Shown here: one piece after another, positions 12,656 through 18,484 of the stretch
Position numbering within the stretch: the stretch's first letter is position 1
How the letters are laid out: each line of letters opens with the position of its first letter
Assembly: GCF_001017655.1 (NCBI RefSeq)
Contig: NZ_CP010904.1
Coordinates: 1,440,001 to 1,472,000 of the forward strand
DNA: 32,000 nt
Direction of reading: 5' to 3'
Source of the DNA: Kiritimatiella glycovorans
Lineage (GTDB): Bacteria > Verrucomicrobiota > Kiritimatiellia > Kiritimatiellales > Kiritimatiellaceae
Made by a program: the position numbers and the translations under genes
The notes under the pieces: model-generated
Told to the model about the DNA's origin: nothing
The model's input: only the letters and a program-made list of their open reading frames with translations
Databases searched by the model: none

Positions 12656-14068
12656 TCAATGCGGAGGTTCACTGGAAACGATAAGGCGGAGGAATTTCCT
12701 GAAGATCGCCTCGCGCAGGATACGAAGATCTTCGCGGATCGACCGGTGATAGGCGTAGTAGAGGCAGTCGCACAACGTATCGCTCTCGGCGTGTCCGGTG
12801 GCGTAGGAGAAGACCCCGGGGAAATAGATGTTCAGGTCCTCGAGACCGGATTTCGCGGTGTCGGCATCCAGCAGCGGCTGGCCGCAGAGCCGGAAACGAC
12901 CGGTGAGTACGCGCCCGAGCAGCGGCCACCGGTCGAGGTTCAGTCCCTCAAACAAGCGCACCAGCCGATTGCGGCGCGCCACGTTCAGCAGCGGCACCCG
13001 GTGCGTACGGCGCAGGTGGATTCCGTAGACCTCCCGCTTCTCGAACCGCGCCGCCCCGGAGATCCGGAGCGCGAGGGTGCCGGCGAGAAAGGGGATCAGC
13101 TGCACGATCCAGAGAACCAGTGCGACCGGGTACTCGAGGACGAACCGCACCGAATCCCGGGCGGCTCCGCTCCCGCCCGTTTCGGCGAGCAGCCAGGGAT
13201 CGGTAAGATCGATAAAATCGCCGCTCTCGGGATCGATCAGCCTCCGGCCGGCGATGATCTTGTTGCGGACCTCGAGATTGGTGCCGATGTAGCTGTGCCC
13301 CAGCACCACGCAGTCGGAGAGTTCGCAATGACGCTCGACAATGACGCGGTCGCCGATGACCGCGTGCGGACCGATGGTGCAGAGAGGTCCGAAGCGGCAG
13401 TCATTACCGATAATGACCGGAGGGCGGAATTCGGTCGACGAGGGGATGATGACATTGAGCCCGATGTGGTTCCCTTTCTGAAAGGCGTAGCCCGGGCGGA
13501 CGTAGCGCTTGGCCTCCCCGGCGGCGAAGTCCATGTTGAGCCGGCAGTACTCCTGAGTGGAGCGGATCTCCTGCGGTTGAATATCGAGGTGCTCCCACCC
13601 GCCCGGTTCAAGCACTCCATCGAGCCAGGCCTGCACGTGGGCGGGATCGGAGGCCGCCAGCGCCAGCGCCTCACCCTGTGCATAGAGCGCGGGTTCCGCG
13701 GGCGGACCTGCTTCTCTGCATTCGTCGTAGGAGGCGCCGCGGCGGAGAAACACGGGGCCGGAGAGCGCAAGCACGCCCCCCTCCCACAACTCCGGATGTC
13801 CGGCGAGGTAGTCCCGGATCGTCTGTCCCGGATTGAGAAAGCTGAATTGCGCACGGATGCCCCAGCGTTCCCCCTCGCCCGCGAAATGCTCGATCTCTTC
13901 CGCGCCCTCGCCGAGCAGGATGCGGCAATCACGGATCCCGAGATCGACACACTGTCCGATCGCGTGTTCGATCCATGCGCGTCCGCCGACCGGCAGCAGC
14001 GCCTGCGGCGTCGTTCCGAGCGACCCGGCCCAGGGCGCCCGTGCGCCCGTGTCGATCACGGCATGCAT
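12656..14068 (-). CDS. Three-part fusion of a nucleotidyltransferase-like N-domain, a left-handed beta-helix (LbH) and a degenerate bacterial sugar-transferase (PGT)-like C-domain
   Basis: The N-terminus PQALLPVGGRAWIEHAIG resembles sugar-1-P nucleotidyltransferases, but its Gly-rich loop is atypical (DTGARAPWAGSLG). The middle part has hexapeptide-repeat-like runs (IIGNDCRFGPLCTIGPHAVIGDRVIVERHCELSDCVVLG). The C-terminus parallels the genuine transferase at 15752..16489 (LNLDRWPLLGRVLTGRFRLCGQPLL versus [27 protein letters not shown]). The start codon directly abuts the STAS stop codon (14068/14069). Confidence 0.7.
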   Translation of the reverse strand: MHAVIDTGARAPWAGSLGTTPQALLPVGGRAWIEHAIGQCVDLGIRDCRILLGEGAEEIEHFAGEGERWGIRAQFSFLNPGQTIRDYLAGHPELWEGGVLALSGPVFLRRGASYDECREAGPPAEPALYAQGEALALAASDPAHVQAWLDGVLEPGGWEHLDIQPQEIRSTQEYCRLNMDFAAGEAKRYVRPGYAFQKGNHIGLNVIIPSSTEFRPPVIIGNDCRFGPLCTIGPHAVIGDRVIVERHCELSDCVVLGHSYIGTNLEVRNKIIAGRRLIDPESGDFIDLTDPWLLAETGGSGAARDSVRFVLEYPVALVLWIVQLIPFLAGTLALRISGAARFEKREVYGIHLRRTHRVPLLNVARRNRLVRLFEGLNLDRWPLLGRVLTGRFRLCGQPLLDADTAKSGLEDLNIYFPGVFSYATGHAESDTLCDCLYYAYHRSIREDLRILREAIFRKFLRLIVSSEPPH

Positions 14069-14413
14069 CTAATCGCTGTAGGAGCGGACGGCCTCGTCGA
14101 CCGAATCGTAGATCTCGAACACCTTGTACGCACGGGTGATCTCAAAGACCATGCGCGGCTTCTTCTGAAGCCCCGCGATTTTCAGATCGCCGCCGCGTTC
14201 CGTGATCCGCTTGAGCGTCGCAATGAGGGCTCCCAGCCCCGCGCTGTCCATGAAATCGACATCCCCCATGTCGACCACGTAATTCAGGACGTCACTCTCC
14301 GCCTCCTGCCACGAACGTAGCTGTTCCCGGAAGGCATCCACCGTGGCGGCCGTCAGCGCTCCGTGCAGCGCCACGATACCCACATTGTCTTTCCGCGTGC
14401 AGTTCAGTTCCAT
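14069..14413 (-). CDS. STAS-domain anti-sigma-factor antagonist (SpoIIAA / RsbV / HsbA-like)
   Basis: 114 aa. It has the canonical DFMDSAGLGAL motif with the phosphorylatable Ser at residue 57 (codon at 14243-14245). GGGAGAAG lies upstream of the ATG. Confidence 0.9.
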   Translation of the reverse strand: MELNCTRKDNVGIVALHGALTAATVDAFREQLRSWQEAESDVLNYVVDMGDVDFMDSAGLGALIATLKRITERGGDLKIAGLQKKPRMVFEITRAYKVFEIYDSVDEAVRSYSD

Positions 14414-14485
14414 TTTCTTCTCCCTGTTTGGGGTCGACTTTATTCAACCACTCCGATTTCTACGACTTCATTCGACGTCCGCGTG

Positions 14486-16491: not shown

Positions 16492-18108
16492 CTATTCCGT
16501 CTCCCGCTGCTCTCTTCGTATGACGAAAAAGGACACATTGGAGTGATTGATCCGATAGCGTTCCACGTAATCGGCCACGGCGTCGATAATCGCCAGTCCT
16601 CTCCCCCCTTCGGCAAGCATGTCCTCTTCGTCGCCGCGCCGGCTGCGGCGGTCGATGTTCCACTCCCGGCCCCGGTCGATCGCGACAATCCTGCACACTT
16701 CGTCGCCGAGATTGATCTGCACCCAGAACGTCTCGTCCTCCGCAAGTTCGCTGTGATAGACGATATTTGCGCCGTGCTCCATCAGCAGCAGCCGCGCGGA
16801 GGCCGCCGCGTCTTCGGACCAGCCCCGGTCCTTCAGCAGGCCCTCCGTCTCCGCGGCGAGTCTGGACACCTCTTCGAGTTCCGGGGGCGAGAACCGCTCC
16901 AGGGCCACCTCGCGCTTGCGCTTCATGTAGATGCAGACGGAGGTACAGTCGTCGCCTTCCAGCGAATAGCCGCGCTGCTGCACCTCCCGGAGCAGCCCCC
17001 GCGCCTTGTTGAACTCGTTCTCGCGCGCGAGCACCTCCCCCGCCAGCGCGCGGAGACTGTCCCGGCCGCAGAGTTCGCCGCTGGCCTCGTGACGCGCCTC
17101 CAGAATGCCGTCGGTGTAGAGCACGAAATACGTGCCTTCCTCCGCCTGCACCGCAACCTCATCCTCCCGGCGGTACGGCGCGTCTCCCAGCATCGGGAAT
17201 CCGATGGGCACGCCGCCGCCCTCTTCAAAGAGATCGGCGGCTCCCGACTTCCCGTCGCGTACCAGCAGCGGGGAGGGATGACCGCAGTTCATGCAGCGCC
17301 ACACGTTCGTTTCGGGATCGTGTATGGCGACGAAAAACGTGGCGTAGTAGGACGAGGCGTCCACACTCTGCCGAAACCGGGCGTGGAGTTCGTTGCACAG
17401 GTCGGCCGGACCGGCGTCCGGCATGTTGCGCACCAGCTCGCCGAACGACGCCTTAAGATAGGTCGAGATCATGGCCGGGGCCACCCCGTGCCCGGAGACG
17501 TCGCCCACATACACGCAGAGGCGGCCCGAGGGCAGCTCCACGATGTCGAAGGCGTCGCCGCCGACGTCCATGCACGGCTGGTAGGCGATACGGATCTCGA
17601 ACGACGAACTGAAAAAAGGTTTGTCGGAAAAAAACGTCCGCTGAATCGTACCCGCCAGTCTGAGTTCGTTGGATACGCGCGTCTTCCAGCGCTGGAGCGA
17701 CTCGTTGCTGCGTTTCAGTTCCAGCGCGTTCCCTACGCGCAGGACGAGTTCGCGCGGATTGAACGGTTTCCTGATGTAGTCCAGCGCGCCCATCTCAAAG
17801 GCGCGGGCGAGATCATCGATCTTCGTCTTGGCGGTGACCATCACCACCGGCACTTCCGCGCAGCGCGGGTCGCTCTTCAGCTTGCCGCACAGCTCGAACC
17901 CGTCCATGCCGGGCATGACCACATCGACCAGAATAAGATCCGGGCGCATGCCGTGAGCGCGTTCCAGGGCGACCGGCCCGTTTTCGGCCTCGATCACCTC
18001 ACATCCCCGTGCGCTCAGAAGCTTCCGCAGGTAGAGGCGGTTTGGGCGCTCGTCGTCGACGACCAGGACCCGTCCTGCCAGCGAACGTTCGGATACGTGT
18101 CCGGTCAT
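16492..18108 (-). CDS. Response-regulator receiver / PP2C (SpoIIE-type) phosphatase / HATPase-like anti-sigma kinase fusion (HsbR / RsbU-RsbW-like)
   Basis: - **Receiver domain:** RVLVVDDERPNR...DLILVDVVMPGMDG...VVMVTAK.
- **PP2C domain:** GGDAFDIVELPSGRLCVYVGDVSGHGVAPAM ... YTDGILEA.
- **C-terminal GHKL-like domain:** MEHGANIVYHS ... DRGREW ... GGRGLAIIDAVADYVE. Confidence 0.9.
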   Translation of the reverse strand: MTGHVSERSLAGRVLVVDDERPNRLYLRKLLSARGCEVIEAENGPVALERAHGMRPDLILVDVVMPGMDGFELCGKLKSDPRCAEVPVVMVTAKTKIDDLARAFEMGALDYIRKPFNPRELVLRVGNALELKRSNESLQRWKTRVSNELRLAGTIQRTFFSDKPFFSSSFEIRIAYQPCMDVGGDAFDIVELPSGRLCVYVGDVSGHGVAPAMISTYLKASFGELVRNMPDAGPADLCNELHARFRQSVDASSYYATFFVAIHDPETNVWRCMNCGHPSPLLVRDGKSGAADLFEEGGGVPIGFPMLGDAPYRREDEVAVQAEEGTYFVLYTDGILEARHEASGELCGRDSLRALAGEVLARENEFNKARGLLREVQQRGYSLEGDDCTSVCIYMKRKREVALERFSPPELEEVSRLAAETEGLLKDRGWSEDAAASARLLLMEHGANIVYHSELAEDETFWVQINLGDEVCRIVAIDRGREWNIDRRSRRGDEEDMLAEGGRGLAIIDAVADYVERYRINHSNVSFFVIRREQRETE

Positions 18109-18121
18109 CGACCTCTCCCGC

Positions 18122-18484
18122 TCAGGACCCCTGTCCCGTGTAGTTGCGGCTCCACTGGATGAACGCGCGGGCCAGCTCGGCGCACCGCTCCTCGCGTCCC
18201 TCTTTTACGCAGCTCCCGATTTCTTCGGCCAGCACGGAGATCTCGGGAAGGCCTATCGTGCCTCCCATCCCCTTGATCGAATGCGCGGCGCGACGGATGC
18301 GCTCGTGATCGTTGTCCCGCAGTCCCGCCTCCAGCTCGCCGGACTGGAGGGCCAGTTCGCTGCAGAAGGCCTCCTTCAGCTCTTCGTCCATCTCCATGGC
18401 TTCGACCGCGAAGGCGTTCATACGCTGCTCAAGATCCGGTATATATTCTGCGATCCACTCCCGGGGATTGCCGCCGTCACTCAT
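18122..18484 (-). CDS. Histidine phosphotransfer (Hpt) domain protein (HptB-like)
   Basis: It has the motif AAHSIKGMGGTIGL (HxxKG). The start is taken at ATG 18484 (MSDGG), preceded by AAGGAGAG. The stop lies 13 nt upstream of the receiver-PP2C gene. Confidence 0.8.
   Translation of the reverse strand: MSDGGNPREWIAEYIPDLEQRMNAFAVEAMEMDEELKEAFCSELALQSGELEAGLRDNDHERIRRAAHSIKGMGGTIGLPEISVLAEEIGSCVKEGREERCAELARAFIQWSRNYTGQGS

Follow-up and report, generated by a model that had tools for sequence, protein, structure and literature searches.

A conserved five-gene cassette

The 32,000-nucleotide stretch of the Kiritimatiella glycovorans genome analysed here (contig NZ_CP010904.1, positions 1,440,001 to 1,472,000; hereafter the 32-kb window, with a G+C content of about 64%) carries on its minus strand a set of signalling genes interleaved with genes related to glycan synthesis. 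Read 5' to 3', these encode an Hpt (histidine phosphotransfer) protein, a response regulator composed of a receiver domain (REC), a PP2C phosphatase domain and an RsbW-like kinase domain, a phosphoglycosyl transferase (PGT) and, beyond a repeat array, a single-domain STAS protein, a protein of 470 aa and an anaerobic sulfatase-maturating enzyme (anSME). The components were called from a listing of open reading frames (ORFs) and from Pfam/NCBIfam scans of the window (Table 1), and they were recovered at the places and on the strand given by a first-pass annotation that a model had made from the sequence alone. The Hpt boundary required correction: the gene is present, but the end assigned to it, position 18484, is the second ATG, a possible alternative start, and the ORF extends to 18526.

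The gaps between the genes are 13 nt for Hpt and the regulator, 2 nt for the regulator and the PGT, 0 nt for STAS and the 470-aa protein, with the ATG of the latter immediately following the STAS stop codon, and 18 nt for the 470-aa protein and the anSME. The PGT and STAS genes are separated by 1338 nt, and this junction, in which the repeat array is located, is the sole loosely coupled one of the cassette. In relatives, the regulator-PGT and STAS-470-aa junctions are mostly 4-nt overlaps, and the PGT and STAS genes are 9-72 nt apart in 25 of them, with a wider gap of 242-273 nt in another three.

These relatives were collected by searching a 12-sequence family alignment against one genome from each GTDB species, which yielded 25 full-length relatives, and by look-ups of contigs, which added more; the loci were then compared by tblastn of six window proteins followed by ORF reconstruction. 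In each of the 29 distinct loci, the genes for the PGT, STAS and the 470-aa protein share one strand and follow one another in this order, and STAS and the PGT are never fused. Another 28 loci, which belong to at least two phyla, have the series of Hpt, regulator, PGT, STAS and 470-aa protein with the gene order and strand unchanged, so that chance adjacency is excluded. Of the 28 loci that have room for it, 27 carry the gene for the REC-PP2C-kinase regulator immediately before the PGT gene, the exception being Kiritimatiellaeota bacterium B1221, and an Hpt domain is present in 22 loci, either free-standing or fused to the regulator. The first-pass annotation had made its interpretation of the locus depend on conservation of this adjacency in relatives, and conserved it is.

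The carriers comprise Kiritimatiellales, Pontiella and metagenome-assembled genomes labelled Verrucomicrobiota, Lentisphaerales or Victivallales, together with the Desulfobacterota genera Desulfonatronum (L001) and Desulfotignum (L022). The two Desulfobacterota loci show about 36-37% identity for the 470-aa protein and 62-63% for the PGT, the same level as many genomes of the PVC group, which suggests that the whole block has been transferred as a unit.

The phospho-acceptor and catalytic residues of the Hpt, REC, PP2C, kinase and STAS domains are kept in every orthologue (22-29 orthologues, depending on the protein). His82 of Hpt, in the motif AAHSIKG, is present in 22 of 22 orthologues. The regulator matches Response_reg (9.4e-30), SpoIIE (2.9e-31) and HATPase_c_2 (4.9e-11), in that order, and Asp62 and Lys114 of REC, Asp185/203/333/386/387 of PP2C, and Asn448 and the G-boxes of the kinase are retained in all 27 orthologues. 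The STAS protein belongs to the anti-sigma antagonist superfamily TIGR00377 (6.6e-22). Its Ser57 aligns with Ser58 of SpoIIAA, the phospho-serine of that protein, and with the equivalent MDSAGLG motif of TM1442, and Asp56-Ser57 and Gly59 are kept in 29 of 29 orthologues. The STAS gene also retains a strong Shine-Dalgarno motif, GGGAG.

Natural gene fusions connect the Hpt, the regulator and the sensor kinase. In 12 relatives (L010, L011, L015-L017, L019, L022, L023, L025-L028) Hpt and the regulator are encoded as one in-frame fusion, and in L085 (4063-8658) a HAMP-HisKA-HATPase kinase, REC, PP2C and the serine kinase form a single protein of 1531 aa. Such fusions confirm that Hpt and the regulator act together and that a phosphorelay lies upstream, and they demonstrate that the route from the sensor to the STAS kinase can be contained in one polypeptide. 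By its domains and intact key residues, the signalling half of the cassette fits the HptB/HsbR/HsbA architecture, that is, an Hpt protein, a REC-PP2C-kinase regulator and a single-domain STAS protein.

The PGT is the most conserved protein of the cassette (61-70% identity). It matches TIGR03025 (EPS_sugtrans) with 9.7e-87 and 292 bits, just below the curated cut-off of 295.55, and the motifs KFRSM, DPR, the Asp-Glu dyad and PRP are kept in 28-29 of 29 orthologues, so that every signature of the PglC/WbaP family is present. Small PglC-type PGTs begin at about the membrane helix; in the cassette enzyme, this helix is preceded by a cytoplasmic extension that is conserved and about 45 aa long (the region of residues 1-50), in which Arg10, Leu13, Pro20, Trp40 and Glu41 are invariant in an alignment of 14 sequences. 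This extension may be a docking segment.

Table 1. Features of the cassette and its surroundings; coordinates are those of the 32-kb window
Feature	Coordinates	Strand	Evidence
Hpt, 134 aa from first ATG	18122-18526	-	PF01627, E = 1.9e-13; motif AAHSIKG
Response regulator, 538 aa, REC + PP2C/SpoIIE + RsbW-like serine kinase	16492-18108	-	Three Pfam domains
Small monotopic PGT, 245 aa	15752-16489	-	Bac_transf PF02397, 6.6e-67
Mosaic tandem repeat array	~14476-15728		Repeat analysis
Single-domain STAS protein, 114 aa	14069-14413	-	PF01740, 7e-23
Three-domain putative pseudoenzyme, 470 aa	12656-14068	-	Profile and AlphaFold fold matches
anSME	11261-12637	-	TIGR03942, 2e-153
Sigma-70-like promoter match, TTGTCC-16-TAGAAT, 9/12 matches	18544-18571	-	Just upstream of Hpt

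The 470-aa protein and its family

The protein encoded directly downstream of STAS consists of a nucleotidyltransferase-like domain (residues ~1-190), a left-handed beta-helix (LbH; ~200-290), a membrane helix (302-337) and a PGT-like domain (~340-465). Pfam models detect only hexapeptide/LbH matches in the K. glycovorans copy, and the other assignments come from a profile of 29 family members and from structure prediction. The first ~80 positions of the profile match sugar nucleotidyltransferases (tlr0611 with 6.7e-21, then MurU, GMPPB, eIF2B epsilon/gamma, RmlA and GlmU), positions ~200-275 match LbH proteins, and positions ~342-466 match PglC (8.7e-6; a further PglC profile match has 4.5e-6) and WbaP (3e-4). 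When the family was compared with the alignment of the cassette PGT by hhalign, residues 365-457 aligned onto PGT residues 137-237 with 82% probability and E = 1e-5. The full-length AlphaFold model (pLDDT 82, pTM 0.71) found MurU in a Foldseek search (4.6e-8), followed by RmlA and tlr0611. The model of the C-terminal 175 aa (pLDDT 89.5, pTM 0.83) had as its sole matches at E < 1 in the PDB the structures of PglC (8g1n/8e37, TM about 0.6) and WbaP (8t53, TM 0.69), and the matched region extends over nearly all of PglC, its long N-terminal membrane helix included. Moreover, distant family members match the Pfam families NTP_transferase, Hexapep and Bac_transf directly. The identity of the protein as a fusion of nucleotidyltransferase, LbH and pseudo-PGT domains, which the first-pass annotation had proposed, is thereby borne out.

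The same annotation had also counted the protein among the glycan enzymes, and here the residues point elsewhere. It had recognized the PGT-like domain as degenerate, but the nucleotidyltransferase domain is degenerate as well: in the alignment to tlr0611 and MurU, the catalytic Arg of the GxGTR motif is replaced by Trp (Trp13) in 25 of 29 members and the catalytic Lys of the P-K-P motif by Trp (Trp22) in 26 of 29, with Gln22 in K. glycovorans, and the Gly-rich loop is gone. The PGT-like domain shares the complete fold of PglC and WbaP and keeps of their signatures only the Asp of the Asp-Glu dyad (Asp379, 29 of 29). The Glu position is occupied by Arg or Leu, GPRP has become CG(H/Q)xP, and there is no equivalent of the PRP Arg, of KFRSM or of DPR. 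Judged by these residues, both enzyme-like domains of the 470-aa protein have almost certainly lost their catalytic activity, and a role as a regulatory subunit suits the protein better than one as a glycan enzyme.

It should be noted that non-catalytic paralogues with the nucleotidyltransferase-LbH architecture, namely eIF2B epsilon/gamma and GMPP alpha, are among the proteins matched by the family profile. GMPPA, the regulator of GMPPB, and eIF2B gamma/epsilon are regulatory or scaffold subunits rather than enzymes. They share the nucleotidyltransferase fold and the left-handed beta-helix with the 470-aa family, but they are eukaryotic and soluble, and have neither a PGT-like membrane domain nor a known link to STAS.

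An exhaustive profile search revealed that the family is large, with 886 clusters (50% identity) at E <= 1e-30 and more than 100 full-length proteins among the best 150. In the source databases its members are annotated only as 'hypothetical' or as 'NDP-sugar pyrophosphorylase family protein', and one sampled cluster is from Cloacimonadota. A STAS gene lies directly upstream of the pseudoenzyme gene in 33 of 35 contexts, whatever the type of kinase, and STAS is itself immediately preceded by a PGT gene in 31 of the 35.

The variation around this pair is illustrated by six more distant family members that were inspected (L086-L091). Two have the full succession of PGT, STAS and family member, preceded by a PGT/WecG gene: in L089 this gene follows several glycosyltransferase genes, and in L090 the family member is followed by a second STAS gene, a free-standing RsbW-like kinase and a GT2 glycosyltransferase. 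In L091 a REC-PP2C-kinase gene is followed by a 776-aa GT4 glycosyltransferase, which takes the place of the PGT, and then by STAS and the family member. L086 has a free-standing RsbW-like kinase, STAS and the family member, followed by phosphomannomutase and ManC. In L088 the family member is followed by a PHP+STAS fusion, RmlC and a REC protein that is 53% identical to the N-terminus of the regulator, and in L087 a PGT (60% identical to the window PGT) and a PGT/WecG gene precede the family member, with no STAS seen. As STAS remains upstream in 33 of 35 contexts while the type of kinase varies and the PGT can be replaced, STAS and the pseudoenzyme form the invariant core of these loci.

STAS domains also occur in other combinations in the related contexts. 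L002 (2601-4046, minus strand) encodes a WecG/TagA-type glycosyltransferase of 481 aa with a C-terminal STAS domain, and the PHP-domain protein with a STAS domain in L088 (1967-3079, plus strand) has 370 aa.

Possible output of the STAS protein

The genomic surroundings of the cassette in relatives point to surface polysaccharides. In five of six Pfam-annotated relatives (L001, L002, L003, L085, L089) it lies inside a polysaccharide-synthesis cluster, with genes for GT2/GT4 glycosyltransferases, hexapeptide acetyltransferases, Poly_export, Wzz-like and Wzy_C proteins and a Polysacc_synt flippase; in the sixth (L084) it is trailed by two glycosyltransferases only. PAS, HAMP or hybrid histidine kinases are encoded, or fused, directly upstream in L001, L003, L084 and L085. 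In addition, fusions join STAS to priming or early glycosyltransferases, as in the WecG+STAS protein of L002 and in the cyanobacterial proteins All4160 and XssP.

We consider the chances to be even that the five genes constitute one signalling-plus-effector cassette, which controls, at the post-translational level, the initial committed reaction of a surface polysaccharide pathway of the Wzx/Wzy type; for this proposal we infer all protein-protein contacts as well as which way the regulation works and which polymer is made. A hybrid histidine kinase, of the kind that is adjacent or fused in relatives, would load His82 of Hpt, and Hpt would in turn phosphorylate Asp62 of the regulator REC domain, as the Hpt-regulator fusions suggest. 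Phosphorylation of REC has been established to favour PP2C over the kinase in HptB/HsbR (PMC5085249), and the balance between PP2C and the RsbW-like kinase would be tipped likewise here. Ser57 of STAS, the residues for its modification being intact, would thereby be phosphorylated or dephosphorylated. Unphosphorylated STAS would leave the kinase domain and bind the co-translated 470-aa membrane pseudoenzyme, which would pair in the membrane with the active PGT via its dead PglC-like domain and so modulate the PGT. Priming, i.e. the transfer of a sugar-1-phosphate to polyprenyl phosphate, would be turned on or off as a result. SypA of Vibrio fischeri and All4160 of Anabaena suggest by analogy that the switch is probably 'on' when STAS is unphosphorylated. 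A pair of a PGT and a pseudo-PGT is plausible, given that PGTs of the WbaP type dimerise.

A more far-reaching proposal concerns the family as a whole, and it is put forward tentatively. Its members, with the 470-aa protein as the first example, might be STAS-gated regulatory subunits of PGTs, in which the dead PGT domain heterodimerises with an active PGT and the dead nucleotidyltransferase domain, with its two Trp substitutions, binds STAS and possibly also a sugar nucleotide. The input from the phosphorelay and the supply of precursor would then be integrated at the committed step.

Some observations speak for the proposed chain and others against it, and those that favour an alternative are given below together with it. 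The covariation of evolutionary rates was analysed with a partial Mantel (mirror-tree) test on 26 loci, from which the shared phylogenetic signal had been removed. The regulator and STAS, an expected pair of enzyme and substrate, covary with r = 0.55 (p = 0.0005), the PGT and the pseudoenzyme with r = 0.68 (p = 0.0005), and the regulator and the pseudoenzyme with r = 0.28 (p = 0.01), and the value for the PGT and STAS is not significant (r = -0.18). These values fit a chain from the regulator via STAS and the pseudoenzyme to the PGT, and lend it weak support. However, the signal for STAS and the pseudoenzyme themselves is weak (r = 0.24, p = 0.02), and rate covariation can also stem from shared expression or from constraints imposed by the membrane. 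Furthermore, the designation 'pseudoenzyme' is derived from the loss of consensus residues, and an unusual catalytic solution is formally conceivable.

One alternative is classical partner switching onto a distant sigma factor, in which the kinase domain sequesters an RpoS-like sigma factor, or STAS in its unphosphorylated form binds an anti-sigma factor such as FlgM, and the PGT and the 470-aa protein are merely co-transcribed products of the regulon. The REC-PP2C-HATPase_c_2 architecture is the same as that of HsbR and CrsR, both of which bind RpoS, and HsbA binds FlgM (PMC6482189, PMC5085249); moreover, the sigma partner could be encoded outside the 32-kb window. Nevertheless, as the first-pass annotation had noted, no partner of this type is near: sigma and anti-sigma domains, including Sigma70_r2/r4, are absent from all major ORFs of the window, none of the 11 Pfam-annotated related contexts contains a sigma or anti-sigma gene, and no gene for FlgM or a GGDEF protein was found in the window or in the related loci inspected. 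Regulation of a sigma factor would also leave unexplained why STAS and the pseudoenzyme are translationally coupled, in 33 of 35 contexts and irrespective of the kinase, and why two phyla share a PGT gene placed, with 4-nt overlaps, between the genes for the regulator and STAS. We regard this alternative as unlikely. The view that the output may be an embedded glycan enzyme rather than a sigma factor, which the first-pass annotation had advanced, is supported by the comparison of genomes and by the precedent of HenR/All4160 in Anabaena (PMC13555669).

A second alternative accepts that precedent in a more literal form. The direct target of STAS would be the active PGT, the two proteins being the separated counterparts of the domains that are fused in cyanobacteria, and the 470-aa protein would be a separate accessory, for example a scaffold for later enzymes or a sensor of sugar nucleotides. 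All4160 and XssP do fuse STAS to Bac_transf, with phosphorylation of STAS negatively controlling function (PMC13555669), and the fusion of STAS to an active PGT in All4160 fits direct action equally well. The position of the PGT gene directly upstream of STAS in 31 of 35 contexts, and the N-terminal extension of the PGT, which could be a docking site for STAS, are in agreement with this alternative. It would not be expected, however, that the PGT and STAS lack residual rate covariation (r = -0.18), that theirs is the only uncoupled junction of the cassette, with gaps of 9-273 nt, or that STAS and the pseudoenzyme remain paired in loci without a PGT or with another enzyme in its place (L086, L091). 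Direct action on the PGT appears improbable to us.

The K. glycovorans locus itself has several peculiarities that bear on whether the proposed control of priming via the pseudoenzyme operates in this organism. Unlike most annotated relatives, it has within the window no genes for glycosyltransferases, for export or for a flippase beside the cassette; with none of the genes of a polysaccharide cluster at its sides, the cassette is detached from whatever pathway it serves. A sensor kinase gene, encoded beside the cassette in relatives, is likewise not in the window. In addition, the 1.3-kb repeat array parts the PGT gene from STAS. About 11 mosaic units of 103-127 nt make up the array; they are composed of short GC-rich hairpins, GGCGC-GAA-GCGCC and GGCCCC-TGC-GGGGCC. 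Its motifs occur neither elsewhere in the window nor in the related loci compared, and it is an insertion specific to K. glycovorans. A known RNA or a coding region was considered for the array and rejected: no Rfam family matches (best E = 0.93), and the array is open in all six frames merely because its units lack stop codons. In the mRNA sense, one unit forms a better fold than shuffled sequences do (z = -2.0), whereas the opposite strand shows no such difference (z = -0.05), which is suggestive only. Because polysaccharide genes do not adjoin the cassette and the array splits the PGT from STAS, the role of the cassette in K. glycovorans may differ or be weakened.

At the extreme, the K. 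glycovorans cassette could be a stranded remnant, cut off from its polysaccharide cluster and its sensor kinase and split by repeats, with little or no function left or with a new, unrelated use, for example together with the anSME. The missing neighbours and the unique 1338-nt insertion would be in keeping with this, and in the 470-aa protein of K. glycovorans 5 of 50 conserved columns deviate, Trp22 to Gln among them, a number that two other loci share and none exceeds. Yet none of the five ORFs is disrupted and no catalytic or phospho-acceptor residue has been lost, deviations are few in the regulator (1 of 76 conserved columns), the PGT (2 of 100) and STAS (0 of 29), and the tight coupling of regulator to PGT and of STAS to pseudoenzyme has been preserved, as has the good Shine-Dalgarno motif of STAS. 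Gene decay in K. glycovorans was accordingly rejected on the retention of motifs, and we consider a stranded remnant very unlikely.

The anSME, which carries a C-terminal SEC-C motif (PF02810, 1.4e-9), had been listed by the first-pass annotation among the components of the module. With tblastn, homologues were found in none of the 28 related loci, so it was rejected as a member of the cassette, and its adjacency is specific to K. glycovorans.

The scan for promoters between 11000 and 19000 returned one sigma-70-like site against 0.9 expected from shuffled sequences, which is weak evidence; the site is a possible candidate for the start of the operon. No terminator-like site was found within the cassette. 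Other genes in the window encode glycoside hydrolases, sugar-metabolism enzymes including UDP-glucose dehydrogenase, a PLD-family protein, a patatin, a leucyl aminopeptidase and an alanine racemase, among others. Divergent from the cassette, a 729-aa protein (18594-20783, plus strand) has a weak match to MGH1-like glycoside hydrolases and C-terminal TPR repeats.

Relation to known switches and implications

The first-pass annotation had compared the module with Pseudomonas alone, which overstated how unusual it is, as the Syp and Hep systems provide precedents for a STAS switch of polysaccharide synthesis. The HptB-HsbR-HsbA system of Pseudomonas aeruginosa and CrsR-CrsA of Shewanella do have the same three signalling parts and the same domain order of the regulator. 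The Pseudomonas genes are contiguous, however, and the system acts on FlgM, RpoS and the diguanylate cyclase HsbD (PMC5085249, PMC6482189), whereas in K. glycovorans the PGT and the array lie between the regulator and STAS, the pseudoenzyme comes after STAS, and no such output is encoded close by.

Closer in output is the heterocyst polysaccharide system HenR/All4160/Alr3423 of Anabaena sp. PCC 7120, in which STAS is fused to a Bac_transf PGT and phosphorylation inhibits; such fusions are rare outside cyanobacteria (Mol Microbiol 2026, PMC13555669). In Anabaena HenR/All4160, as in XssP of Synechocystis, a REC-SpoIIE phosphatase and an RsbW-type kinase set the state of STAS and thereby control a Bac_transf priming enzyme, without a sigma factor. 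The arrangement of the parts differs: in Anabaena, STAS and the PGT are one polypeptide, the kinase and the phosphatase are separate proteins encoded elsewhere, and neither an Hpt nor a pseudoenzyme has been described, whereas in K. glycovorans STAS and the PGT are separate genes, the kinase and the phosphatase are fused to REC, the Hpt is part of the block, and a pseudoenzyme is paired with STAS.

The SypE-SypA pair of Vibrio is similar in that one response regulator with a kinase and a PP2C domain both phosphorylates and dephosphorylates a STAS protein encoded inside a polysaccharide locus. A comparable placement inside a polysaccharide locus is seen for the cassette in relatives (L001, L003, L085 and others), whereas the K. 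glycovorans module is flanked by the PGT and the pseudoenzyme only. SypE has an N-terminal kinase, a central REC and a C-terminal PP2C domain, in contrast to the order REC-PP2C-kinase found here, and we know of no Hpt or three-domain pseudoenzyme in the syp locus. In V. fischeri, SypA is the STAS protein of the syp locus, its unphosphorylated form promotes polysaccharide-dependent biofilm formation, and its target has been elusive (PMC8256260, PMC4517449).

Thus, the cassette would work like the HenR/All4160 switch of Anabaena and the Syp switch of Vibrio, yet belongs to neither. A search of the literature on STAS-PGT-nucleotidyltransferase systems and on gene clusters of Kiritimatiellia returned only the work on Anabaena, Vibrio and Pseudomonas, and neither the cassette nor the three-domain family was found in it. 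Phosphorylation-gated control of polysaccharide synthesis by STAS is therefore known, and what is new is the five-gene layout and the STAS-coupled protein with a pseudo-nucleotidyltransferase and a pseudo-PGT domain.

In textbooks, partner switching is regulation of sigma factors, and the targets of STAS proteins in polysaccharide systems, such as SypA of Vibrio and HmpV of Nostoc, have been elusive for more than a decade; it was not until 2026 that a direct enzyme target was put forward, in the case of the cyanobacterial STAS-PGT fusions. The cassette presents the same logic in unfused form, outside the cyanobacteria and in at least two phyla, and its pseudoenzyme is a concrete candidate for the missing link. 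If this is true, pseudoenzyme-mediated, phosphorylation-gated control of priming would be a new control point for capsules, exopolysaccharides and biofilms. It would also give a function to hundreds of proteins that are annotated as 'NDP-sugar pyrophosphorylase family' or 'hypothetical', and would reveal the long-sought type of output partner of STAS proteins in polysaccharide loci.

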